Positions 1 through 57,708 of a DNA stretch of 64,000 nt are shown here, piece by piece (position 1 is the stretch's first letter; every line of letters begins with the position of its first letter). A program made the translations under genes and the position numbers. The stretch is from Clostridia bacterium (lineage in GTDB: Bacteria; Bacillota; Sulfobacillia; JAJZYS01; JAJYTV01): the NCBI GenBank assembly GCA_027420455.1, contig DAIBJA010000078.1:69669-133668 (forward strand). The letters run 5' to 3'. A model generated the notes under the pieces. That model had not been told where the DNA came from, searched no databases, and saw only the letters and a program-made list of their open reading frames with translations.

Positions 1-1532
1 CGATCGAGACGCACTATTTCGGCGAGAAGCTGCCTCTGACCGATGCCTACGACCTGATGATCGAAAAGGACTATTCGATCACCGTGCTTGAGGATGGCAT
101 GGAGAAGCGCAGGCCGTACCCGACCGGAGCTTACCCAACCTACCACCAGTTCAAGTACTGGTTCCACAAGCTCTACTCTGCGGACGAGCGCCTCCGGGGG
201 AGGCGCGGGCACCGGGACTATGTGCTGAATGAACGCCCGCTTGTCGGAAAGGCGAAGGCGTTCTGCGTGGGAGCTATCTTCGAAGTCGATGGCACCGAAT
301 TGCCGATCAACGTTGTCGACGACGAGACGCGGCTGCCGGCCGGCAGGCCACAGCTCTATGGGATCCTGGACCGATTCAGCACGTACGTTGTCGCGGCCCA
401 TGTGTTTCTCGGCCATGAGGGTTGGGAAGAGGTCATCGAAGCCCTCACGATCATGGTTGAGGAAAAGGTGGGCTACTGCGCACGTTTTGGTCTTGCGATC
501 ACTTCCGATCAGTGGCCGGCCCACGGTGTGATTCCAGAGAGCATCTATGCGGATAATGGTCCACTTAAGGCCATAAAGGCTGAGCCGCTGTTCGACGAAG
601 CGCTCCAAATCAAAGTTGACACGCTCGAAAGTGGCCGCGGTGACCGCAAGCCCTACATTGAAAGACTGTTCCGCTCCATTAAGGAAGGCCTAATTGCGAG
701 CCTTCCGGGTTACACAGACCGGTCGTATGGCGACGCGCCCAAGGCACTGAAGGATGCGGCCATGACAGTAAGTGAAGTGCAGCGCGAAGTGAACGACTGG
801 GTCATTTGGCATAACAACGAGAACTTAGTCTCCTCAGACTTGCTCGACCCGGAAGTGCTAGAGGAAATCGAGACACCTACGCCGCTGGCCGTCTGGAACT
901 GGGGGATGGAACACGGCGACAGCCTGCGACCGGCGCCGAGCAACTTCCGCACTCTCTTGCTCCCTCAAGAGGAAGTAACCATAAGACCGCGCCTGGGGCT
1001 GACATTCCGCAAGCTGCGCTACACATCCCCCACCGTGCTGGCTCTCTCCTTGGGGAACGTCCCAAAGCAGGAGCGCAAGCGGAGAATTGCCTATGACCCA
1101 GGGCGCGTGGACGTCATCTACCTGATCCAGCCAGATGGGAGTCGCGAGGAATGCCACCTGATCGGCGACGAGTTCGCTGGGCCGGAGTGGAGCTGGAAGA
1201 AGTACGAGAACTATCGCAAGGCCGAAAAGCAGAAGAGGCAAGAAGCGGAAGAGGCGTCCATTGCCGGGAGAGCGGAGTACCTCAAGCGGCGGCAGGAGCG
1301 TGTGGCCGCGGCCAAGGCACAAACCAAGGACCTGCGGCGCGGACTGCGTCCGGGAGAAATCACCGGCGGAGTCGAGGAACGCAAGGAGGCACAACGCGAC
1401 CGTGAGATCCAGCGCCGCAATGGAGTCCGGTCACCCCAGCCCAACAGCACCCAATCCGGCAAAGTGGTTCCTCTGCGGCAATCGAAGCCGACGCGGTACG
1501 ACTCTCTGTACGACGATCCTGAGAAGGGGTGA
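1..1532 (+). CDS. tnsB: Tn7-like transposase TnsB (DDE / RNase H-fold), 5' end truncated by the window edge
   Basis: The frame is open from nt 3 (IETHYFGEKLPLTDAYDL precedes the listed M at 57). DDE-type motifs are FEVDGTELPINVVDD, IYADNGPLK and YIERLFRSIKEGL. It overlaps the next gene (GTGA). Confidence 0.85.
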   Translation, partial: IETHYFGEKLPLTDAYDLMIEKDYSITVLEDGMEKRRPYPTGAYPTYHQFKYWFHKLYSADERLRGRRGHRDYVLNERPLVGKAKAFCVGAIFEVDGTELPINVVDDETRLPAGRPQLYGILDRFSTYVVAAHVFLGHEGWEEVIEALTIMVEEKVGYCARFGLAITSDQWPAHGVIPESIYADNGPLKAIKAEPLFDEALQIKVDTLESGRGDRKPYIERLFRSIKEGLIASLPGYTDRSYGDAPKALKDAAMTVSEVQREVNDWVIWHNNENLVSSDLLDPEVLEEIETPTPLAVWNWGMEHGDSLRPAPSNFRTLLLPQEEVTIRPRLGLTFRKLRYTSPTVLALSLGNVPKQERKRRIAYDPGRVDVIYLIQPDGSREECHLIGDEFAGPEWSWKKYENYRKAEKQKRQEAEEASIAGRAEYLKRRQERVAAAKAQTKDLRRGLRPGEITGGVEERKEAQRDREIQRRNGVRSPQPNSTQSGKVVPLRQSKPTRYDSLYDDPEKG

Positions 1533-3070
1533 GAAGCGTGCCCGACTACCCTCCAGCTGTCTACACCCCGCGCAAGGTCACCTATTACCAGGACAACCCG
1601 TTCATCGAGGCGCTGCCGCAGCCGAGGTCCATCGACGAGACCTTTGACGCCGTGAAGTGCTTTCCCGTCCCACGGCCGGATTGGCGGGAGTGCGACGCCA
1701 AGACACGCAGGGACGAGCTTGGCATTATGATCCGAAGCTTCTACTTCCCTACGCCGGACGCGATGGCAATGTGGGCCAAGGCTGAGAGCGCGCTGCACGA
1801 AGGTTATGTTGCACGGTGCCCTCAGCAGTGGCGCAAGGCGACGCTCACACCCAATGGCTTCAACCTGTTCGGTCCTCCTGGCCTCGGGAAGAGTTTAGGC
1901 GTGGAGCGCCTGCGGACACTGTACGGAACGCAGCCGATCGCCCATAACGAGTACAAGGGCCAGCGGTTTTCCATACTCCAGCTGCCCGTTCTGCTAGTCG
2001 AGTGCCCGCCGGACGGATCGGCCAAGGCCCTGCTTGTCGCCATTCTGGACCGGCTAGATGAGGAGCTGGGGACGTCGTACCGTCAGGACTATGCAAAGCC
2101 TCACACGACACGCGACGTGCTGTCGCTCGACGTGGTGAAAGTGCTCAAGCTGCACGTAGGCCTCTTGGTCATCGATGAAATCAACAACCTGCGTGATGGC
2201 GAGTGGTCAAGGGAGATCAACAACTTTCTCAAAATGATCCGCAACCAGTCCAAGGTCCCGGTGATTGTGGTTGGCACCCCACGTGCAAAACATCTGCTCA
2301 CGTCGACTTTGAGCGATGGTCGTCGTGGGCATGGCCAGGGGGAGAGCAACTGGAGACTGGTTCCCTGGGGCAAGGTTTGGGATAGATTCACTTCACGGCT
2401 CTGCGACATTCAGATGCTGCCTACGCCCGTCCAGTGGTCAGAAGATTTCGCCCAAGTCATGTACGAGTGCACAGCGGGGTTCCCGGAGTTGGCGACTCAG
2501 CTGCACCTTTGGGTGCAAGACCGCGCTCTTGCCGAGGGCTGGGAGACGTTTACGCCAGATCACATTCGCACGGTGCTTAAGGAGGACTTCCCCACAGCAG
2601 CGCAGATCGTAGGGAAGATCCTTTCCGGCAACAAGACAATCCTTGCTGAGTTGGAGGATCTCGGGCTGCCCGACCCAGAGGATCGTTACCTGCGCGTGGC
2701 GATCAACCTCCGAGGTTCGGTAGAGACTGGGGACTCGCAGGCAGACAGGGCAACGGTGGCGGACGAGACCCTTGCCTGGCTGCTGGATGCGGCCTACGAC
2801 GAGTCGTCTGCCATGGAGGCCATCACCCTGGCCGTCGACGAATTGGGAGAAGGCGCAACGGACGTGAGCGCCCTCAAACGCAAGGCTTACGAGATACTGA
2901 CCCGCAAGCCCCGGCGCCGGCCGAAGCCCAAGAGCGCTCCTTCGCCTGCGATGGAGCCTCTGCCGCCGCTCTACGTCGTGCGGTCCGAAGACGATGCCTA
3001 CGAGGTTCTACGCTCACAAGGTCTCGTGCGGAGCGTCGCGGACATCTTGGACGAGGTGAGTGCGGGGTGA
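1529..3070 (+). CDS. tnsC: TnsC/TniB-family AAA+ transposition ATPase
   Basis: Walker A FGPPGLGKS and Walker B LLVIDEINNL. It sits between tnsB and tniQ. GTG start overlaps the tnsB stop. Confidence 0.8.
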   Translation: MRSVPDYPPAVYTPRKVTYYQDNPFIEALPQPRSIDETFDAVKCFPVPRPDWRECDAKTRRDELGIMIRSFYFPTPDAMAMWAKAESALHEGYVARCPQQWRKATLTPNGFNLFGPPGLGKSLGVERLRTLYGTQPIAHNEYKGQRFSILQLPVLLVECPPDGSAKALLVAILDRLDEELGTSYRQDYAKPHTTRDVLSLDVVKVLKLHVGLLVIDEINNLRDGEWSREINNFLKMIRNQSKVPVIVVGTPRAKHLLTSTLSDGRRGHGQGESNWRLVPWGKVWDRFTSRLCDIQMLPTPVQWSEDFAQVMYECTAGFPELATQLHLWVQDRALAEGWETFTPDHIRTVLKEDFPTAAQIVGKILSGNKTILAELEDLGLPDPEDRYLRVAINLRGSVETGDSQADRATVADETLAWLLDAAYDESSAMEAITLAVDELGEGATDVSALKRKAYEILTRKPRRRPKPKSAPSPAMEPLPPLYVVRSEDDAYEVLRSQGLVRSVADILDEVSAG

Positions 3071-4662
3071 TCGCATACTGGACTGATCCGTACCCCGAAG
3101 AGCTGCTTTACTCCGCACTTGCCAGACTCGGGGATGCATTGAACTACGACAGCCCCTCCGCCCTCGCTCGCTTGGCCTTCGGTAGGCTGGCCTCCGCCAG
3201 CTACGATTTGCCGACCGACATCGACGCACTGATCGCTCGCTTGCCGCCACATCACAGCTACACGGCGAACCAGCTCATTCAGGAACACACCCTCTTGCCC
3301 TATTACACGCACTTCATGACCAAGAACAGAAGTGAGGCGGCAAGAGACGCCATGTGCAGCTCTTCGAGCCGCTTGACTAGACAGCAACTGATCAGAGTAA
3401 TTTCGGAGCCAGAATCGCTATGCTTCTGCCCGAAGTGCGTCGAAGAGCAGCGAGCTACTATCGGCGAGCCGTACTGGGTGCGAAGCCATCAGGTTCCGGG
3501 GAACTCCGTTTGCGCAACGCATGCATGTTTCTTGGAGCGTTCGACCGTGAGCCGACGCCGGAACTCCAATCCTCTGGCATACTCGTCCTTGGAACGGGCG
3601 CTGCGAGATCAAGACGTTGCCCCGCGAGACATTGACCCCAGTTCATCCAGTCACCATCTCCTGCTAATGCTGTCTGAGGACGTGTCATGGCTCATGTCCA
3701 ACCATGGACATGCTTCGCCGCAGGCACTTGTCGCCTTGTACCGACGCCGTCTGCAAGAACTCGGCTTGGTGTCTGTCGGCAGGAAGACCCACTACACGGA
3801 GGTCGCGGCCGCTTTCGACGCCTGGCTTCCCCAAGAAGCGCGTCTCTGGTTCCGCGATATGCATGCGTATTCGTCGACCGAGCTTTGGCTACGCCGAATG
3901 ATGCAGACTGGCGATTCAGCGCAAAACCCGATGTATCATCTAATCCTCCTCCGCTTCCTGGGATTCGAGGGGGTAGGGGCAATGTTCTCGGCGTCGGAGG
4001 CGCTGCCGACGCGGCAGCCGCCGGTGTCGCCGCTGGAACGCGGCTGCGAAACCGCCCCACTAGATGATCGTATCCCTCGGTGGCGAAGCGAGTGGGCGGA
4101 TCTTACGCTCAGTCATCCTGAAGCCTCGCGGACGCAGCTTCGGCGGCTGAGGCCGGCACTGTTCGCGCATCTGGCCCAAAGCGACCCAGTATGGCTAGAC
4201 AGACACCTCCCTCCCCGTCATCCCAGGCGCGCTGCGGGTATCGCGGGCCCCTACAAGGACTGGGGAACCCAGGATGCCAATCTGGCTCTAAAGGTGAAGG
4301 TCGCAGTCAAACGGCTGCTGAATTCCCCCGGTGCCCCCAAGCGCGTAACGGCTCGGGCGATAGAGCGACAGCTAGGGCACCAACTTCCGAGCGATCTGTC
4401 GCGGCTTCCGCGCACGGTAACGACGCTCAGGGAACTGACGGAATCCCGCGTACAATTCGCTCTCCGGCGCATCGAGTGGACCGCAAATCGACTTGCCCTG
4501 GAGGGAAAGGTTCTCTCACGATCTCAGTTCGTGCGCGCGGCGAACGTCCAGTACCTGCTCCATCTCAAGCCAATCGAAACAGCCGTAGATCGGACCCTCA
4601 ACGTATTGGCGGAGCGCAAGTCCGTCTGGCAGGACGTTGCCCCAAGTTCCGACTCGGCGTAG
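3067..4662 (+). CDS. tniQ: TnsD/TniQ-family target-selection protein (copy 1)
   Basis: TniQ-type N-terminus (YPEELLYSALARLGDAL). Cys/His zinc module CFCPKCVEEQ...VCATHACFL. 531 aa, TnsD-like length. The start overlaps the tnsC stop. Confidence 0.8.
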   Translation: MIAYWTDPYPEELLYSALARLGDALNYDSPSALARLAFGRLASASYDLPTDIDALIARLPPHHSYTANQLIQEHTLLPYYTHFMTKNRSEAARDAMCSSSSRLTRQQLIRVISEPESLCFCPKCVEEQRATIGEPYWVRSHQVPGNSVCATHACFLERSTVSRRRNSNPLAYSSLERALRDQDVAPRDIDPSSSSHHLLLMLSEDVSWLMSNHGHASPQALVALYRRRLQELGLVSVGRKTHYTEVAAAFDAWLPQEARLWFRDMHAYSSTELWLRRMMQTGDSAQNPMYHLILLRFLGFEGVGAMFSASEALPTRQPPVSPLERGCETAPLDDRIPRWRSEWADLTLSHPEASRTQLRRLRPALFAHLAQSDPVWLDRHLPPRHPRRAAGIAGPYKDWGTQDANLALKVKVAVKRLLNSPGAPKRVTARAIERQLGHQLPSDLSRLPRTVTTLRELTESRVQFALRRIEWTANRLALEGKVLSRSQFVRAANVQYLLHLKPIETAVDRTLNVLAERKSVWQDVAPSSDSA

Positions 4663-4849
4663 GAAACTCCCACTTGCCCCTGGATAGCCCGTCCTCATAA
4701 CGATGGTAGCCATCGGGCGCCACCTGTGCGCACAATTCACTTGCATTGACCGCATGCCGCGGACTGCCGTAGTCCGGTTGAAATGTGGGTCTTCGACAAA
4801 GACGGCTTCGGAGGGTATCTACAACGCTAATACCGGGCAAACTAAGCTC

Positions 4850-6358
4850 ATGTTGGGATACTTCACTGCCCCCTTTGCCGATGAACTGTTCTACTCCGTC
4901 ATCGCCCGTCTCGCCGATGAACTGCATCTGCGGGGGGTGCGTCCGATCTCGGAGAAGCTGTTCGGCGTTTACGTTCGACCAACGGTAGAGCTCCCCAGCC
5001 ACCTGAACTACTTCGTAGATCAGCTTCCGCCGCATCATACGTACACCGCAGGCATGTTCGTCGATAAGCACTCAATGTTTCCGTATTACGCGTGGCTGGT
5101 GGAGTCGCGTCAGCGCAAGATTGCCCGCGCTTTCATGCTCAAAGACGGCGGGGACCATACCCGGATGAGGCTGGGCATGGCGGCCCGAAGAACTGCAAGG
5201 CGAACTACACTTCGGTTCTGCCCCTCATGCATAGACCAAGATCGCCAACGCCATGGCATAGCGTACTGGCACCGGGCACACCAACTTCCCGGAGTCATCG
5301 TTTGTCCCCATCACCGAGATCCCCTCTACGAGGCCGAACGAGCAGTGACGCAGTCATACACCCCGCTTGAAGCTCTTGACATGTCAAAAGCTGGACGGGC
5401 GTTCCTCGGCGCAATCCCCCGGGTAGCGGCGGAAGTGGCGGGAGAAGCCTGGTGGGTCCTCTCTGGTGCCACAACAGGTCCTCTTGCCGAGAGTCTGAGC
5501 CAATCGATTGGGACTCTCCTTGTGGATGCCGGCTGGGCTTCAGCGAATGGCCGCGTCGCCGCCTCGCGGCTCGTACGATACTTCCGGAACTTCTACGGGG
5601 ACGAGTACCTGAAGCACACAGACTGCTCAGTTCACGAGGTTGACGACAACTGGCTTCTACGAATAGCACGAGGACACCCGAGAAGCCCGGATCCCCTGCA
5701 CTTTGTTCTGTTGGCCGTATTCCTGCAGACAACGCTGAAAAGCCTCGTGCAGTCCACCGGCGAAATGCGATCTACAAAGCCGGCGATTCGTACACCTGTA
5801 GTCCGTCGAGCGGTGCTTCAACTGGGCTCGGAGCGCCGCGCCGCGTGGCTCGAAGCGATGCGATCCCGGCCGGCCGTCGGGACCAAGGCTTTACGCCAAG
5901 AGTTTCCTGCTTTGTACGCTTGGCTCTACCGCAACGACCTGGAGTGGTTGAAAAGCCATCAACCGCCGATAAGAACGCGTTCGCCTAAGGCTCGCGTGGA
6001 TTGGACTGCCAGGGATAAGGAACTTGCCGAAAGTGTACTTGTGGCGGCAGAACAACTTCGAACCATCCAGCCCAGATCGCGCGTGACAAAGACGCTGATC
6101 GGTCGAACCATCGGACGTTTGTCGATTCTGGAGAAATGGGCGCCCAAACTACCTCGGACGGTAGCCGCTCTCGAAGCTGTCTGCGAAACTGTAGAAGAGT
6201 ACCGCCATCGCCGTATCCGCGAAACCGTCGTGCGTTTACAGCTTGACGGCAAACCGATGGCCTTCAGTACCTTCTACCGCCTTGCCGGCTTGCGTTCCAC
6301 TCCGACTTCGCTGGCCGAACAACAGTTGATCGCTGACTTGCTGAAGGCTGGCTGGTAA
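4850..6358 (+). CDS. tniQ: TnsD/TniQ-family target-selection protein (copy 2, paralogue)
   Basis: MLGYFTAPFADELFYSVIARLADEL aligns with the N-terminus of copy 1, so the ATG at 4850 is preferred over the track start at 4703. Zinc module FCPSCIDQD...VCPHHRDPL. Shared LPPHH(S/T)YTA motif. Confidence 0.75.
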   Translation: MLGYFTAPFADELFYSVIARLADELHLRGVRPISEKLFGVYVRPTVELPSHLNYFVDQLPPHHTYTAGMFVDKHSMFPYYAWLVESRQRKIARAFMLKDGGDHTRMRLGMAARRTARRTTLRFCPSCIDQDRQRHGIAYWHRAHQLPGVIVCPHHRDPLYEAERAVTQSYTPLEALDMSKAGRAFLGAIPRVAAEVAGEAWWVLSGATTGPLAESLSQSIGTLLVDAGWASANGRVAASRLVRYFRNFYGDEYLKHTDCSVHEVDDNWLLRIARGHPRSPDPLHFVLLAVFLQTTLKSLVQSTGEMRSTKPAIRTPVVRRAVLQLGSERRAAWLEAMRSRPAVGTKALRQEFPALYAWLYRNDLEWLKSHQPPIRTRSPKARVDWTARDKELAESVLVAAEQLRTIQPRSRVTKTLIGRTIGRLSILEKWAPKLPRTVAALEAVCETVEEYRHRRIRETVVRLQLDGKPMAFSTFYRLAGLRSTPTSLAEQQLIADLLKAGW

Positions 6359-6614
6359 AGGCCGGGGACACCTTGAAGGGTGCCGCATCAGGTTCTGCGG
6401 AAGCCCGCGTTAGATCGGGGTCTGACCCCTATCTCACCAGCGAACACTCGACGTGGCGCCGCCCATCGGCTGTCGAAGCCTCCATAATGATGCTTGTCCG
6501 GGCGACCGTCCGAGCCAGGCAGTGTCCCTCTAGCATCGCGATGCCGTCGAAAGGAGACGGCCAGCCGGGTTCGGATTCCGATGGATGATCAGGTAACTGC
6601 TTCGTACTGCGATC

Positions 6615-7664
6615 TCAAGGCGTGCCAGGTGTGGGTGGGCTCCCGCCCGGAGCAGGAATAGGGAACGGGAAAGGGATACCTGGAACTGGAGCTTGTCCAG
6701 GAATCGGGCCGAGGGGGATACGCATCACAACGCCCTGCGTTGTCCCCGCGCTGCGTATAAAGGCAACCCCTTGGTGGTTCTCAATAATCTTCACAGCTGC
6801 CGTATGGCTAAACACGTGGCTGGTCGCGTGATGCACACTCAAGACCAAGTCCTGCAAGGTTGAGTCGCTCTCCAAGTCAATGACGCGCAAGTGCTGACTG
6901 CGTGCCTGGGCACGGGAAACCTGCCTACTATGGGACTTGAAGTTCCCGTGATCAGCGAACCAGGTAGCGACATCACGCCCCAACTGGGTGCGGTTACGCC
7001 TTCGGCGAAACATATATGTCGCCAGCCATTGCCCCACCATATCTCGCGCAAGGGCCTGTTGGGTGACACACAGCTGCAGGAGGCCAGGATGATATCCGCG
7101 TAGAATCGGCATCCAAACAGGGAGCTTGGCAGGATCACGACATTCGGTTTGTGCCCGCTGGAACTCGTCGAGAAGTGCACGTGCAGGGACGTGAATCATA
7201 CCGTTGCCATTGGGGTTGGGCATTCCCAGTTGCGGATCGATAGGCCCAAGCTGAGAGTGTGCACCCATAACAATCTCATCGCATCCAAGCGCCAGCATCG
7301 TCGCTGCAGACATTGCGGCAACTGGAATGAAGACCCGAATTGGATTGAACCGCTGGCGGAGGTAGTTCAGCACAGACTCGGCCGCTTCCGCCATGCCTCC
7401 AGGGCTATGCAAAATGAGGTCCAGCGGGCCCTTAGGCAACCCTTTCACTGCCCCCATAAAGCCTTGAATGTCAGCGAGGGTAAGCATCACTGCTCCGCTA
7501 GGTGTCTCTGGCTTTTCGAGGTACGCCGTACTATACAAGATCACCGGATTCCCGGTATATTTGTACAACTGTGCGAGGTACTTCCGACGCACTCCATCAA
7601 AATCAGGCGTCCCATTAACTACGGTTTGCATAATCTCGTTTTCGATTTCACCCCACGTTGGCAT
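6615..7664 (-). CDS. SDH-family Clp-fold (S49-like) serine protease with Pro-rich C-terminal tail
   Basis: LILHSPGGMAEAAESVLNYLRQRF...IPVAAMSAATMLALGCDEIVMG is typical of the serine dehydrogenase proteinase / ClpP-fold family. RBS GAGGAGG lies upstream of the ATG. Confidence 0.7.
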   Translation of the reverse strand: MPTWGEIENEIMQTVVNGTPDFDGVRRKYLAQLYKYTGNPVILYSTAYLEKPETPSGAVMLTLADIQGFMGAVKGLPKGPLDLILHSPGGMAEAAESVLNYLRQRFNPIRVFIPVAAMSAATMLALGCDEIVMGAHSQLGPIDPQLGMPNPNGNGMIHVPARALLDEFQRAQTECRDPAKLPVWMPILRGYHPGLLQLCVTQQALARDMVGQWLATYMFRRRRNRTQLGRDVATWFADHGNFKSHSRQVSRAQARSQHLRVIDLESDSTLQDLVLSVHHATSHVFSHTAAVKIIENHQGVAFIRSAGTTQGVVMRIPLGPIPGQAPVPGIPFPFPIPAPGGSPPTPGTP

Positions 7665-7696
7665 GACGCCACCTCCTCAGCCCTCTTTACGAAGTG

Positions 7697-7728
7697 AGGT
7701 CCTCGGAGTGTCCACACCCCGAGGACCT
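7697..7728 (-). other. Perfect 10-bp-stem hairpin between the small ORF and the protease gene
   Basis: AGGTCCTCGG-N12-CCGAGGACCT with no following U-tract on the minus strand. It is intercistronic (7665-7735). Confidence 0.5.
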
Positions 7729-7735
7729 GGCGAAG

Positions 7736-7981
7736 CTACCTCGTTGAGGACGAATCCCAATAGAACGGCTCTGGAAGTGTGGACGCGTAAACTGTTGCCG
7801 CCATCTCGGTCAGTTGCAGCAGTTCACGCACACCAGGTTGAGTCGACGCTTGCTCAATCAGAGCTTGCAGTTCAGCATCTCTATCCTGAGCGCTCACCTC
7901 TTGCTTCGCGTCTTCTACGCCCCGGTTACTCACGTCCGCATCCTCCTCCTCGTTCATTCGGGGAGTTCTCCCCATGCACAT
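7736..7981 (-). CDS. Small acidic hypothetical protein (73-81 aa) upstream of the SDH protease
   Basis: ORF only; no family recognised. It is co-oriented with and 72 nt upstream of the protease. An internal start MNEEEDAD at 7957 has a GGGGAGA RBS. Confidence 0.4.
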   Translation of the reverse strand: MCMGRTPRMNEEEDADVSNRGVEDAKQEVSAQDRDAELQALIEQASTQPGVRELLQLTEMAATVYASTLPEPFYWDSSSTR

Positions 7982-8183
7982 GCAACTCCTTCCACGTTCT
8001 GTACTATTCAGAGCGACGCGATATAGTCCCTCGAATCGCGTAGTTCAATTCCGAAATAAGCACAACCCGACGCTGTCATTCAACACATGGACCGCTCGTA
8101 CCCGAGGACTTCTGCCCGAGCCTTTCCAGGGAGCTTTAGTTCGTCGCTGACGAGCGAGGGTAAGGACCTTGCGGGGATGCCCA

Positions 8184-8255
8184 GGGCGGATTTCTAAATC
8201 CCCAACCCGCATGAGAAAGGCGGGTTTTAGGGCGGATTTCAAATCCCCTCTCACA
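8184..8255. repeat. Two copies of a 19-20 nt palindromic repeat flanking a hairpin, ending in ...CACA (candidate L-end region of the transposon)
   Basis: 8184-8203 GGGCGGATTTCTAAATCCCC; 8204-8226 AACCCGC-N9-GCGGGTT; 8230-8248 GGGCGGATTTCAAATCCCC; then TCTCACA to 8255. Confidence 0.6.
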
Positions 8256-8261
8256 GGATTT

Positions 8262-8336
8262 TGTGGAGTGACAATAGGGTTTCGCGCTGATCAATAGAGA
8301 TTCGCGCTGGACAACAAAGTTTCGCACCGTGACCAC
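8262..8336 (+). mobile_element. Tn7-type terminal sequence plus three tandem 20-bp repeats (candidate TnsB-binding array; orphan R-end-like, interior to the right)
   Basis: TGTGGAGTGACAATAGGG carries the TGT-N5-GACAA signature. Cores TTCGCGCTGATCAATA (8281), TTCGCGCTGGACAACA (8301) and TTCGCACCGTGACCAC (8321) recur with a 20-bp period. Confidence 0.5.
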
Positions 8337-8339
8337 CGC

Positions 8340-8703
8340 GCTGGGTCCCGGTGCGAAACTTGTCCATGGAACCGATGCTTCATGCGGCGGACCGCAGGAC
8401 GCCTCGCTGGTCGAGCGTGATGAGTCGCATCGGGCCGGAGAGGAGATGCGCCTGCTGGCGGATCGCATCTTTGTCTGCCCTGCTTGCGACCACACAGAGG
8501 ACCGCGACCTGCACGCCTCGCGCAACATCCTGCGCGAAGGTCTGAGGATCATCCAAACTACCGAGGGTCCCTCGGAAAGTGACGCCTGTGGACAGGCGGC
8601 CTCCACGAAGCGTTCGCGCTTTGCGCACCGTCTGGTCGAAGCAGGAAGGGCGCAAGCCCACGGTAAGACACCGAAAGAAAGTGGCGGTCGTGAATACGTC
8701 TGA
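8340..8703 (+). pseudogene. tnpB: IS200/IS605-family TnpB, C-terminal fragment only
   Basis: RLLADRIFVCPACDHTEDRDLHASRNILREG matches the TnpB zinc-finger/RuvC-III tail (C..C....DRD.NAA.NI). About 300 aa of N-terminal sequence are missing. The ORF tail EAGRAQAHGK resembles the translated omega-RNA region typical of these loci. Confidence 0.65.
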
Positions 8704-8720
8704 CTACGTTTCCAGTGACA
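8500..8720 (+). ncRNA. Possible omega-RNA (reRNA) scaffold remnant overlapping the tnpB 3' end
   Basis: Position relative to the tnpB 3' end. Local hairpins are CCGAG-GGTCC-CTCGG (~8561) and GCCTGT-GG-ACAGGC (~8584). Boundaries are not determinable by eye. Confidence 0.3.
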
Positions 8721-8942
8721 GAACAAGACTCGGGCGGCGGACGCGATGGCGACTGCTTCGTTTCCCGCCGAGTGGTGGGAGCGCGGAGGAACGCACCAAG
8801 CTAGTGACGGCGGAGCAACAGACCCTGCGCGGCGCCGCCTCTCCTCTGTACTCGGTAAAGTCCAGCTCCGCATCTCTCCCGCTAGGGCCCTGAAGACACG
8901 CGGTCGACTGGTTGAACACCACACCCCTTGAATCCGCCTGCC

Positions 8943-9758
8943 TTAGAGAATTGCTTCTCGCTGCGCGTGATAGACGGTCGGTACCGTTGGCTTAAAGCCG
9001 AGGCTGCGCGCGAGAGATCCGTCCAGATGTCCCATCCACGGGTTTGGGAGTGGCTTGGCCGACGATTCATAGGCGGCGCCGACGATGCTGGCGATCTCGT
9101 ATACGCTAGTGGGTGCTTCGTCGACAATGTTGACCACATGACCGCCCAGGGATCCAGTGAGGGCAAGTTCGACGGCGGTCGCGATGTCGCGCTGGTGGAT
9201 GAGGCTTAGCGTCTGTGCGGGGTGCCAGTTCCAGGAGCCGAGTAGCTGCGGTGCTGATTGCAGGTGTCCGTCGCCGTCACCGTACACGAACCCGAGGCGG
9301 AGCACACTCCAAGTGAGTCCGCTGTCCCGGAGTGCGTTCTCTGCGGCGAGCTTGCTCGCCGGGTAGGCGCGGGTCGGATTTGCGGGGTCGTCCTCGCGCG
9401 CCGGACGGGGAATGTCGTCGTTGTACACCAGGCCGGTGCTCGCCATGATGATCCGCGCCTCCGGGGCGTGAGCCTTCGCGGCGGCAATGAGGTTCTGGGT
9501 GCCCTCGACGTTGGCCCTGCGGATCTCGTCGGGGTCGAGCACTCGCAGTACAGCTGCGAGATGCACGATCGCTGACACGCCTTCAACGGCCGATGCCAGC
9601 GACTCGGGATCAAGGAGATCTCCTTCGACGGTGGCGACGCCGTTGAGTACCGTCCTTCCGGGTCGCACGAGTGCGCGGCAGTCGACGCCGGCGTCGACAA
9701 GGCGGGGCAGCAGTCGCGAGCCGACAAGACCGGTCGCACCGGTGATGAGGATGGTCAT
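8943..9758 (-). CDS. NAD(P)-binding SDR / NmrA-like epimerase-dehydratase family protein
   Basis: MTILITGATGLVGSRLLPRLV Rossmann motif; 271 aa. Confidence 0.8.
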   Translation of the reverse strand: MTILITGATGLVGSRLLPRLVDAGVDCRALVRPGRTVLNGVATVEGDLLDPESLASAVEGVSAIVHLAAVLRVLDPDEIRRANVEGTQNLIAAAKAHAPEARIIMASTGLVYNDDIPRPAREDDPANPTRAYPASKLAAENALRDSGLTWSVLRLGFVYGDGDGHLQSAPQLLGSWNWHPAQTLSLIHQRDIATAVELALTGSLGGHVVNIVDEAPTSVYEIASIVGAAYESSAKPLPNPWMGHLDGSLARSLGFKPTVPTVYHAQREAIL

Positions 9759-10280
9759 GATTCGTCTCCTTCTGAGAGGTGTTCGGTGAGGTGTAGCGTC
9801 GCGTCGCGGAGCACTCGGACGGTCGTCACGAGGTCAGCTTCGTCGGCGCCAAGGAACGCGATCGCATCGATACGTGCGATCGGGCCCGGAAGCGCTTTCC
9901 ACAGTTCGACGTGCCCGTGTCGGTGATTCGCAGCCTCCGCTGGTGCTTGTCGGCGGGGTCGGGCGCCTAGTCGACGAGGCCCTTGCGCACGAGTGCGGCA
10001 ACGACGCCACTCAGGTCGCCCGTTCGCCGTCGAGCATGCACACGAGGATGCGTTGGTTCGTCGGTTCCTCGCTCGCGAGCTGGTAAATCGCGCACCACTG
10101 GGTGGGGCCAATGCCGTATGGGCGCACCATCATGGCCCGGCTGGCCAGGTAGTACTTCTTCACCCGCGCGCCGGCCGAAGGCTCTAATGGACCGGTGGAA
10201 CGTTGGACCCCACTTGCGGACGGCCGACGAACGCCTACGCATTGCACAGCACGGACGTCACTGGGGTAGCTGGGAGGCAC
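9755..10280 (-). pseudogene. MarR-family regulator, disrupted (two frameshifts plus an in-frame TAG)
   Basis: MarR-like segments are spread over three frames: GIGPTQWCAIYQLASEEPTNQRIL... / ...LSGVVAALVRKGLVD-TAG(9967)-APDPADKHQRRLRITDTG / ...ELWKALPGPIARIDAIAFLGADEADLVTTVRVL. Confidence 0.5.
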
Positions 10281-10417
10281 GTCCGCGGGGTCGTCGACGA
10301 GTTCGATTCCTCGGAATGAGGGAGAGAGTATGCACCGAACACGAACGGCCTGTACGTCGGCGACGGCACCCCATTGGCACGCTTGCGGTCGAGGTTGCTC
10401 GCCCTGTCAGGTTCACT

Positions 10418-11017
10418 TCAAGGAGCGTCATTTAGCCCCTTTCCATCAAGAATGTGCTGCACATATTTCTCCACTCTCGACTGGCGAGTTTTCGATTGTT
10501 TGGGCGAAGACAAATAGAGGATGTACGCCCTTCTCCGCCCTGGAGTTAGTGCGTCGAAGGCAGTCTCCAACGCTGGCAGTTCAATGAATTTATTTCGAAG
10601 CTCTTCAGGGATTATGTACTCTGAGGTATCTTTAAAATTAACTTTCAAACCAGACTTCTCAATTTCAACGGCTTCGTAAATGTAGGACTTTAAGACGGCT
10701 TCCATTTCAAGGATCTCCTGAAGATTAGTAAACCGAATCTGACGAGCCGCCTGTACATTTTCAGTCTGTTGGACCAGGATGCCCGAGGCATCCTGCAACA
10801 GCGCTCCCTTGTGGAACAGAAGCGCACAATATTCCTTGAAGCCATGTATCAAAACAATGTTTTGCTCCCCGAAAGTGTAACACGGATGCATCCACTTATA
10901 TTCTTCGGTCAATCCACATTCCAAAACGATTTCTCTCAATCCATCATATTCCGTCTGCCACTTCTTAGCTCTGCTTATGAATTCATCAACCTTGGGATTC
11001 CTTTTGTGCTCTACCAT
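10418..11017 (-). CDS. YdeI/OmpD-associated (DUF1801-type) family protein in a low-GC islet
   Basis: KVDEFISRAKKWQTEYDGLREIVL...YKWMHPCYTF and the C-terminal TPGRRRAYILYLSSPKQSKTRQSRVEKYV are typical of the YdeI family. The region is conspicuously AT-rich. Confidence 0.7.
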   Translation of the reverse strand: MVEHKRNPKVDEFISRAKKWQTEYDGLREIVLECGLTEEYKWMHPCYTFGEQNIVLIHGFKEYCALLFHKGALLQDASGILVQQTENVQAARQIRFTNLQEILEMEAVLKSYIYEAVEIEKSGLKVNFKDTSEYIIPEELRNKFIELPALETAFDALTPGRRRAYILYLSSPKQSKTRQSRVEKYVQHILDGKGLNDAP

Positions 11018-11364
11018 AAAGGGTACCCCTCTTCGACTTCTCGTTTCTCTTTGCCGAATGCCAAGAGACCAGCCGGAGCGCCGCAGGGATCTTAGCCGGC
11101 CCTGTCGGGTAACGCAATGCGACTAACCGCATCACCCATGCGCCCTCGGAGGAGTACTCCACGTTGTCCGTATACTAAATACTAACATATCTTCGACGGC
11201 GTTCGGCACCGACTACCCAGCGTTGACCATCCGCTTGCGGAACGTTTGCCGTCGCTAATGGCGCCCCATTGCGGTGCGCCAACTATCCAGGCCGCATTCC
11301 CTGTGCGATGGTGTCGGGGCTGAAAAGGCAACGAAGCATAGCGCCCAGGTTACCTATAAGGAGA

Positions 11365-12120
11365 CTAGCGGAACGGCCCCGACGCCAGCCAAGAGAACAG
11401 GAGATAACAGCCGGTACCGATCAAGATGCCGTACTGCAGCAGGCGAAACGCCACGGGCGTAAGATGCGCGAAAACCTTCTGTCCGAGCGCCATGCCGATG
11501 GCGACGGCGGGAAGCATCACGGCAGACAGAGACAGCAGATGGCCGCCGATACCCACGGTAAAGGCCTGCAACAGAAATGCAGCCCCGTATACCACCAGAT
11601 AGAAGGTAAGCGAAGTGCTTCGCACCAGGGCCTTCGCCTCCGCCGCTCCTGCCATGTAGGCGAGCAGCGGTGGTCCCGGTACGCCCACGCTGGTTCCGAA
11701 GAATCCCGCAAGGAAGCCCACGACTCGGTCGCGGGAGGCGGTTCGCACAAAGCGCACCCGGGTCATCAGAATGACAGTCACGGCCAGGATGGCGAGCGCT
11801 AGACCAAGCTTGATGTCGCGGATGGACAGCGAGAGAAACGCCAAGATGCCAAGGGGGAGACCAAATATGCTCCCCAGGACCAGATGCCTCAAGAGAGGTT
11901 TTTCCAGCTCCGTGTGGGTGCGTGTGAGCATGACAAGGGAGATGACCAGGGACAGAAGGATGTTGACCTGAATGCCGACACGCGCGGGAAGCAGCGTCAG
12001 GAGCACGGGGACGGCCACGAGGGAGAAACCAAAGCCCGTGCTGATCTGCAGGGCCGCCGCCGCCATAACAACAAATGATGCCTCGACAATCGATAGCCAG
12101 TCGATAGCGGTCACCTCCAC
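11365..12120 (-). CDS. TSUP (TauE/SafE) family anion exporter
   Basis: 251 aa polytopic membrane protein; VVMAAAALQISTGFGFSLVAVPVLL and the second-half repeat GFFGTSVGVPGPPLLAYM. Confidence 0.8.
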   Translation of the reverse strand: MEVTAIDWLSIVEASFVVMAAAALQISTGFGFSLVAVPVLLTLLPARVGIQVNILLSLVISLVMLTRTHTELEKPLLRHLVLGSIFGLPLGILAFLSLSIRDIKLGLALAILAVTVILMTRVRFVRTASRDRVVGFLAGFFGTSVGVPGPPLLAYMAGAAEAKALVRSTSLTFYLVVYGAAFLLQAFTVGIGGHLLSLSAVMLPAVAIGMALGQKVFAHLTPVAFRLLQYGILIGTGCYLLFSWLASGPFR

Positions 12121-56901: not shown

Positions 56902-57708
56902 CTAGTCGACGCGGTAGCTGAGACGCTCCACGGCAAGGAACAGCAGCGCCGAGAACACGAGGAGCATCACCCCGTCCACGAGCCAGACGACGGCTGTGGC
57001 GTGCCCCGTCAGGAGATGCAGCAGAAGACGCACGCCGTAGGTGGAGGGCAGGATGTCCGAGAGGGCGACGAGCGGCAAGGGCAGGCGGCTTGCGGGGATG
57101 ATGCCCAGGAAGAGGACGGCCATCATGACAAGATTGCCAGTGAGACCCGCGAGTTCGCCATCGCGCGATGCCATGCCCAGGAGAGCGCCTATGCCGGATA
57201 GCGCGACGCCGGTGCCGAGGATGACCGGCACGAGCCCCCATGAGATGACGAGGTGCACCCCGTAGAAGAGTGCCCCGACCGTAAGTACCACGGCGATGCC
57301 GGGCAGCGCGAAGATGAGGTAGGCGACCAGGATCGCCAGGATGACGGCGGAATTGGCCACCGGCAGGGTGTGGTAGTAGTCGAAGGTGCGGTTCTGGCGC
57401 ATCCAGGCCACCTGCTGCGCGAGCATGGCGATCGCCGTGATGGTCACCGACAGCACCACATTGCCGCTGATGATCTGCAGCGCGAGAGCGGCGCTCGGAT
57501 GGCTCGTCATCGCCCGCAGCAGGATGGCGATGCCGCTCGGCATCGCCGAGGAGACGATGATGTACTGCCGCCAGCTGCGCCGTGCGCGCGCCAGCTGCAT
57601 GGAGAGCAGCACCCAGAACGCCGCGAAGGCCCCGGCCTTGCCGGAGGCATGGTCAGTGCGCATCGCTATGACCCTCCGTGTCGTGGTAGGCAAGATAAAC
57701 ATCCTCAA
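56902..57708 (-). CDS. ABC-2 type transporter permease
   Basis: Polytopic 268 aa protein; overlaps the upstream ATPase gene. Confidence 0.65.
   Translation of the reverse strand: MRMFILPTTTRRVIAMRTDHASGKAGAFAAFWVLLSMQLARARRSWRQYIIVSSAMPSGIAILLRAMTSHPSAALALQIISGNVVLSVTITAIAMLAQQVAWMRQNRTFDYYHTLPVANSAVILAILVAYLIFALPGIAVVLTVGALFYGVHLVISWGLVPVILGTGVALSGIGALLGMASRDGELAGLTGNLVMMAVLFLGIIPASRLPLPLVALSDILPSTYGVRLLLHLLTGHATAVVWLVDGVMLLVFSALLFLAVERLSYRVD

Follow-up and report, generated by a model that had tools for sequence, protein, structure and literature searches.

A resident Tn7-like transposon abuts a probable right-end remnant of another Tn7-type family downstream of glmS in an uncultured Clostridia bacterium

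The genome of a Clostridia bacterium (Bacillota; Sulfobacillia) carries a junction of two unrelated transposon ends. The window, i.e. the whole stretch of DNA analysed, comprises 64,000 nucleotides (C52:69669-133668) of G000, a 77%-complete metagenome-assembled genome of 87 contigs (assembly size 1.98 Mb). At positions 8184-8368 of the window, the left (L) end of a resident 20.9-kb Tn7-like transposon, hereafter element a, meets a leftover of about 100 bp from the right (R) end of another Tn7-like family, hereafter family b. We estimate at roughly 80% the probability that Tn7-like transposons whose ends are unrelated in sequence have occupied the Tn7 attachment site (attTn7) behind glmS on at least two occasions, the first leaving the family-b remnant and the second being element a. 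The junction is laid out as follows.

8184-8255, minus strand: L end of element a (family a), with the terminus ...CTCTCACA ending at 8255 and a 27-nt inverted match at C52:57050-57076
8184-8203: family-a site L2, GGGCGGATTTCTAAATCCCC
8204-8226: family-a hairpin AACCCGC-N9-GCGGGTT
8230-8248: family-a site L1, GGGCGGATTTCAAATCCCC
8249-8255: family-a terminus TCTCACA
8256-8261, no strand: GGATTT between families a and b, the right copy of the target-site duplication (GGATT) plus 1 nt (T)
8262-8329, plus strand: orphan Tn7-type R end (family b), TGTGGAGT and three contiguous 20-bp units
8262-8269, plus strand: family-b terminus TGTGGAGT
8270-8289, plus strand: family-b unit 1, GACAATAGGGTTTCGCGCTG
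8290-8309, plus strand: family-b unit 2, ATCAATAGAGATTCGCGCTG
8310-8329, plus strand: family-b unit 3, GACAACAAAGTTTCGCACCG
8310-8365, plus strand: hairpin of unit 3 and an inverted copy shorter by 3 nt (8349-8365), -29.5 kcal/mol, z = -4.9

Both sets of sequences had been listed in a preliminary description of this DNA and all of them were present exactly in place. With up to 3 mismatches, the family-a motif matched twice in the window (0.07 matches expected), a number reached by none of 100 shuffled sequences. The family-b unit also matched twice (0.01 expected). The strict family-a motif has only three copies in the whole assembly, two at the L end in the window and one, inverted, at C52:57050. 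Family b occurs a single time in the G000 assembly. Its three units are of the GACAAT type, 20 bp each and exactly contiguous, and Tandem Repeats Finder called a period-20 array at 8272-8325. Positions 8318-8329, within unit 3, are matched by 8349-8360 in an inverted repeat of 12 bp without mismatches, as had been noticed before. Folding of the AACCCGC hairpin in the family-a end was not significant on its own (z = -1.6), and terminator and promoter scans of a simple type over 7600-8800 gave nothing.

The R terminus of element a lies at C52:57050 and reads TGTGAGAGGGGATTTGAAATCCGCCCT. Its 27 nt (57050-57076) are identical to the reverse complement of 8229-8255, and the element spans C52:57050-77923 (20,874 bp). 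The preliminary description had proposed 8184-8255 as a candidate L end, and this inverted terminus 20.9 kb upstream bears the proposal out. It had also asked which motif family recurs at the R end upstream of tnsB: family a recurs there in inverted orientation and family b does not. At the L end of element a, two sites are separated by a spacer of 26 bp. At the R end, the terminal site is followed directly by GGGAAAAGAAATCCGCC and GGGGATTTAGAGATCCGCCC, giving three packed sites, and a fourth site, TGTGAGCGGGGATTCGAAGCC, is found 9 nt further at 57125. The family-a sites (GGGGATTTnGAAATCCGCCC) are quasi-palindromic, GGGGATTT-n-AAATCCgCCC (window 8184-8248; C52:57058-57115), which is unusual in comparison with the directional TnsB sites of Tn7.

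The gene upstream of the R end of element a is glmS, as identified by a glmS ribozyme (71.7 bits) and a 604-aa open reading frame (ORF) in which GATase and SIS domains were detected. Between its stop codon and the TGT of the R end lie 24 nt. The corresponding distance in a real chromosomal Tn7 insertion of E. coli is 25 nt (with tnsA beginning 134 bp from the terminus), and a family-a element in the related genome G007 is found 25 nt after glmS. Element a is oriented with its R end proximal to glmS, at a fixed distance downstream of the gene. When element a and one copy of the duplication are removed in silico, the family-b terminus TGTGGAGT comes to lie 26 nt after the glmS stop, i.e. at the attTn7 insertion point.

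Family b resembles the genuine Tn7 R end. The two begin TGTGGAGT-GACAATAGGG... and TGTGGGCG-GACAATAAAG..., respectively, with 11/14 and 29/48 positions identical, and among the 3.95 million positions of the assembly family b is the top 48-mer match to Tn7R. Its layout is TGT-N5-GACAAT with an 8-bp terminal segment before the repeats, as in real Tn7. The terminal signature and R-end-like packing seen in the preliminary description are thus supported by the Tn7R matches and the spacing.

In a pattern search, family b was detected in two of 40 related genomes (none for the reversed pattern as a control). At 3 mismatches, no further family-b genome was found among 209 genomes of the class, leaving G000, G001 and G006, and a collection of species-representative genomes yielded only three remnant-bearing contigs, including one additional contig (L020). 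G006 has family b behind a second, paralogous glmS, 25 nt from its stop codon; this glmS shares 43% amino acid identity with that of G000. In G001, two diverged family-b copies stand in tandem behind an element of a further end family (family c), 26 nt from glmS when that element is removed. L020, from a near-identical strain, shows 99.7% identity to the window from 8256 on; where the window has family a, this contig shows the L end of family c (...CCCTCACCTCAG) and then GGATT-T-TGTGGAGT as in the window. The presence of a family-c end beside a remnant shared with the window implies independent insertions of two unrelated elements at one and the same nucleotide. Family-b copies are 79-88% identical over the first 48 nt from TGTG compared with 32-44% in the preceding 25 nt, and the similarity among them ends after about 70-110 bp. 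The preliminary description had allowed for 8184-8336 being conserved in strains that lack any Tn7-like element. Family b is absent from G004, an empty-site genome of the same genus, in which glmS is followed after 218 nt by a DUF1801 gene, and the orthologous sites of G002, G003 and G005 have another end family in its place. The related genomes thus supplied the comparison that had been proposed: an empty site in G004, family c beside b in L020, and family b directly behind glmS elsewhere. Taken together, these comparisons indicate a mobile Tn7-type R end rather than conserved chromosomal sequence.

In Tn7, TnsD binds the 3′ end of the glmS coding region and sets a constant distance for the insertion, the R end being the one closer to the gene. 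A family-b element would have come first, with its R end beside glmS about 26 nt beyond the stop codon, and would later have been lost except for its first ~105 bp, i.e. TGTGGAGT, three presumed TnsB sites and the hairpin. The glmS recognition sequence would survive such an insertion and would direct a later element to that point again, placing it between the gene and the older insertion. The 20,874-bp element a would then have been directed to this spot, presumably by one of its TnsD/TniQ proteins reading the 3′ end of glmS. It would have inserted 1 nt from the old insertion point, duplicating GGAT(T) and pushing the remnant to its far side, and the outcome would be the present arrangement with the family-a L end 6 bp from an outward-facing family-b R end. 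Since the newest element is expected next to glmS, the geometry suggests that family b came first and element a later. Target immunity depends on TnsB bound to sites in the resident end (PMC11014353; PMC11406308). The family-a sites (GGGGATTTnGAAATCCGCCC) share nothing with those of family b (GACAATAGGGTTTCGCGCTG); therefore, the remnant would not be expected to recruit family-a TnsB or to impose immunity. The preliminary description had suggested serial insertion, with a newer element between the attachment gene and the R end of an older one, and the ends, the spacing and the related genomes support this model.

Read from R to L, element a begins with its R end and some 11 kb of cargo, continues with tnsA-B-C-D-D′ and, on the opposite strand, a protease gene and a small ORF, and closes with the L end. 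The part of it within the window encodes the following genes.

1-1532, plus strand: 3′ part of tnsB (the gene starts 613 nt before the window, with tnsA just upstream)
1529-3070, plus strand: tnsC (AAA+/TniB-like; Pfam AAA_22 and TniB)
3067-4662 and 4703-6358, plus strand: two TnsD/TniQ target-selector paralogues (Pfam TniQ and TnsD in both)
6615-7664, minus strand: SDH/ClpP-like serine protease (Pfam SDH_protease), L-end cargo
7736-7981, minus strand: 81-aa ORF, L-end cargo

The 714-aa ORF of TnsB showed 27% identity to TnsB of E. coli Tn7 over 526 aa (tblastn, E = 8e-45). TnsA contains the Pfam Tn7_TnsA-like_N and C domains and was matched by TnsA of E. coli Tn7 (tblastn, E = 5e-20). The two TnsD/TniQ paralogues are about 28% identical to each other. 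TnsB was barely recognised by Pfam and NCBIfam, and NCBIfam named none of the Tns proteins. The R-side cargo of about 11 kb includes Vsr and a Dcm methylase, forming a Dcm/Vsr operon, and ORFs of unknown function. This is the sole tns gene set in the assembly, as searched with its own proteins, those of a relative (25-32% identical) and those of E. coli Tn7. Element a thus combines TnsA and TnsB, a TnsC AAA+ protein and TniQ/TnsD with TGT...ACA termini and with packed sites at R and spaced sites at L. By sequence, it has the defining features of a Tn7-like transposon except a clean 5-bp duplication.

The tns operon stands on the L-end side of element a, as seen from C52:57050-68113, before the window, and from positions 1-8255 within it. 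The same layout was seen in the family-c element of G001, in which the 5.5 kb behind the R end on C10 contain no tns genes and tnsABCDD′ stops 0.6 kb short of the L end on C200. Just upstream of tnsA, a 56-nt unit (TGTCATACATTTGTCATACAA plus a hairpin) occurs in three copies with a spacing of 137-138 bp (C52:66833-67163) and may be regulatory; the assembly contains no inverted counterpart of it. The three-copy TGTCATAC array upstream of tnsA was considered as the true R end and rejected, having no inverted partner anywhere in the assembly.

Family b points right, away from the tns genes, as the preliminary description had stated. No tns genes follow it and no second tns set is present in the assembly. 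Neither inverted family-b sites, nor an inverted terminus, nor an L end was found in the window or the assembly by fuzzy matching (up to 5 mismatches) and an inverted-repeat scan, and inspection of 9700-10480 and 11000-11700 by eye also revealed no partner. A 5-mismatch match at 11483 was dismissed because it falls within a coding region. Family b is filed as an orphan remnant and not as an element, its cognate genes and partner end not having been found. Two features mark the stretch behind it.

8455-8722, plus strand: 3′ fragment of a multi-copy TnpB-type insertion sequence (Pfam Cas12f1-like_TNB on the ORF 8329-8703)
10418-11017, minus strand: DUF1801/YdeI-like gene (Pfam), the first gene syntenic with the empty-site genome G004

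In G004, collinear matches run for 15 kb from the DUF1801 gene, which marks the far limit of the glmS island in the window. The distance from family b to the first syntenic gene is about 2.1 kb (8262 to ~10400) and contains the TnpB fragment, an intact epimerase/SDR gene and a degraded regulator gene, with nothing recognisably derived from tns. In the preliminary description, an older element had decayed into the pseudogene-rich zone between 8.3 and 11.3 kb. This extent was overstated, since synteny resumes at 10418 and leaves at most about 2.1 kb. The TnpB fragment belongs to neither transposon end. A copy of its 266-bp 3′ piece with 96% identity is present on G000:C39, and copies with 84-87% identity are present in G001, G008 and G013. 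The recurrence of always the same part suggests a mobile or repeatedly retained mini-derivative.

The glmS-downstream loci of G001-G007 (L016, L037-L044), considered together with this one, show that the glmS sites of a single bacterial family are used by at least five unrelated end families.

Family a: G000 and G007
Family b: G000, G001 and G006
Family c: G001 and L020
Family d (TGGACTCTGACAAGTATGTTTGTCC type): G002, G003 and G005
Family e: G006:C73 (first glmS of G006)

No tns genes were found in the 5-25 kb glmS-downstream stretches examined in G001-G007. The family-c element of G001 encodes tnsABCDD′, with proteins 25-32% identical to those of element a, and its R end directly follows glmS on a different contig. 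The stretch C48:5675-9020 of G007 (L042) starts with a family-a element of 3,096 bp that has its two ends but lacks tns genes, and no family-a tns genes occur within 25 kb behind its family-a R end. Three bp after the ACA of this element, a family-b-like R end (TGTTGGCC-GACAATGATG...) begins. A second, degenerate family-a R end is located at 8954, and the ~15 nt before it resemble the glmS spacer of G000 (CCAAATGGATT and CCAATGGGATT, respectively). No clean duplication flanks the 3,096-bp element. The sister genus (G005, G006, G007 and G008) has two glmS paralogues, about 75% and 43% identical to that of G000, and in G006 Tn7-type ends are found behind both.

Several observations weigh against two successive colonisations as proposed here. 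First, tnsA is 11 kb from the R end of element a, compared with 134 bp in Tn7. Second, the duplication flanking element a is perfect only at 4 bp. The left flank ...CCAATGGGAT is joined to TGTGAGAG, giving GGGAT before TGTG, and GGATT follows CTCTCACA on the other side; a 5-bp duplication (GGATT) is obtained only if the R terminus is taken without its first T. Of the 5-bp duplication anticipated by the preliminary description, GGAT(T) on both sides was confirmed and a clean 5 bp was not. Comparison of C52:57045-57051 and window 8256-8261 with the uninterrupted site in L020 (GGGATTTTGTGG) reveals a 1-base anomaly, which could mean that the duplication is 4 bp long (GGAT) or that a T has been lost, and a homopolymer assembly error might also account for it. 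The family-c element of G001 has a perfect 5-bp duplication (TCGTT), followed by T and TGTG with the same +1 offset. Third, the contig comes from a metagenome assembly; the junction rests on this assembly and on the independent L020 and G001 contigs of like architecture. Fourth, no intact family-b element with tnsA was found in the 209 genomes of the class, the species-representative genomes or metagenome contigs, so that the link of family b to a Tns machinery rests on resemblance and position. A family-b L end and target duplication were likewise not found. Finally, every family-b copy stops just after the hairpin, which is odd for random decay. This sharp common boundary leaves room for a selectively retained remnant or a miniature element, both of which we consider less likely than a simple remnant.

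The hairpin at 8310-8365 coincides with the inner limit of family-b homology. All three family-b copies that are well preserved have a stem of 12-17 bp, formed by the innermost unit and an inverted repeat of it, and the stem sequences differ. The copies in G006 (C88, ~14650-14600) and G001 (C200, ~700-640) have z values of -3.3 and -4.5, respectively. In genuine Tn7, a comparable hairpin with a U-run behind it separates the last TnsB site from tnsA (L060:2595-2628, z = -4.2). A hairpin directly after the last R-end site was also observed in family d of G002, and the family-a R ends have none. The family-b hairpin may serve as an R-end insulator or terminator against read-through from glmS, a function against which the missing U-tract of the family-b hairpins and the negative terminator scan both count. 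It is conceivable, although we regard it as rather unlikely, that the ~105-bp module has been kept by selection. A Tn7-type insertion cuts glmS off from the sequence formerly behind it, and the hairpin would then have assumed the termination or insulation of glmS transcription, with the TnsB sites acting as a family-specific immunity decoy. Such retention would explain why the same piece is present in three genomes and why the hairpin is maintained through different sequences. If so, the retained TnsB sites would decide which Tn7 families colonise the glmS site next.

A somewhat smaller chance is given to family b being a complete non-autonomous miniature R end, whose three direct sites would be complemented by an inverted one in the role of a minimal L end and which would have reached attTn7 by mobilisation in trans. 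In every family-b copy, the inverted unit and hairpin do come immediately before the point where the copy ends. In G006, this unit gives way to GACCCACA, whose reverse complement, TGTGGGTC, resembles the terminus of that copy (TGTGGACC). The 3.1-kb family-a element of G007, with both ends and no tns genes, indicates that non-autonomous derivatives exist in this lineage. However, no matching target duplication surrounds any family-b copy, and what comes behind the inverted unit in the window (CATGGAAC) does not form a TGT/ACA terminus, nor does the corresponding sequence of the first family-b copy of G001 (b1). Moreover, the inverted unit reads equally well as a hairpin like that of the genuine Tn7 R end.

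The R end behind glmS and the L end at 8255 might belong to two separate family-a insertions, in which case the 20.9 kb would not be one mobile unit. This is very improbable. The 11-kb distance of tnsA from the R end and the odd threefold TGTCATAC array just upstream of tnsA are what it would explain; in addition, orphan R ends are common at the glmS site, G007 has two family-a R ends in tandem, and the duplication cannot discriminate because insertions here reuse the same 5 bp. However, the terminal 27 nt are identical at both ends, no other family-a sites lie between them, and the array lacks an inverted partner. A resident family-a end should also block a second family-a insertion through target immunity, and the family-c element of G001 likewise has cargo between its R end and tnsA.

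The idea that family b belongs to the native chromosome behind glmS, for example as a terminator region resembling a Tn7 end, is largely refuted and slightly less probable still. It agrees with the constant position of family b next to glmS and with a strong hairpin where a terminator would be expected. However, family b is missing from G004, where only 218 nt separate glmS from the gene matching 10418, and from the orthologous sites of G002-G005, which carry other end families. It also stands behind a glmS paralogue of only 43% identity in G006 and as two diverged copies in tandem in G001, and the similarity starts exactly at TGTG after an unrelated 25-nt spacer. The remaining alternative, raised in the preliminary description, took the 20-bp units for L-end TnsB sites of the present element because they adjoin its tns-distal side; it is rejected with near certainty, since the R end carries family-a sites only, the family-a repeat and the GGAT(T) flanks bracket 57050-77923, and the units point outward and recur without element a in L020, G001 and G006.

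The preferred reading, in which the glmS site was colonised first by a family-b element and later by element a, fixes the true boundaries of the 20.9-kb element, from 24 nt after glmS to window position 8255, and defines its cargo, including the Dcm/Vsr operon and the protease. It also provides a natural case of two, and family-wide at least five, mutually unrelated end families sharing one glmS site. Such sets of end families are candidates for mutually orthogonal integration systems of the Tn7 type or the CRISPR-associated transposon (CAST) style, and natural tests of the specificity of target immunity.

Compared with Tn7 of E. coli, in which TnsABC and TnsD direct insertion into attTn7 behind glmS, element a has TnsA and TnsB of 27-33% identity, homologues of TnsC and TnsD, TGT...ACA termini, and packed sites at the glmS-proximal R end with spaced sites at the L end. 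Insertion occurs 24-26 nt after the glmS stop here and 25 nt in Tn7. Family b shares TGTGG..(N3)..GACAATA with Tn7R, as well as a hairpin after the last site. Unlike Tn7, element a has quasi-palindromic sites (GGGGATTTnGAAATCCGCCC) unrelated to those of Tn7, two TnsD/TniQ paralogues and no TnsE, and about 11 kb of cargo before tnsA, which in Tn7 is 134 bp from the terminus.

Parks & Peters in 2007 and 2009 and Peters et al. in 2014 are said to have described islands built from serial or tandem insertions of Tn7-like elements at one attachment site. The locus described here is similar to such islands in that heterologous Tn7-like elements or remnants are stacked at one site with the newest beside the attachment gene, and in that immunity would be tied to element-specific TnsB sites. 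Stacked Tn7-like elements are also known from the Tn6022-family islands of Acinetobacter, and ancestral remnants with ends that are hard to recognise occur at the nrdB site (PMC11014353). The present case differs from these islands in its host, an uncultured high-GC Bacillota lineage, in the at least five unrelated end families at glmS in one bacterial family, and in an older element cut to a sharply bounded ~105-bp module found in three genomes. Serial insertion of heterologous Tn7-like elements at attTn7 is thus already known, and what is new here is the lineage in which it is found.

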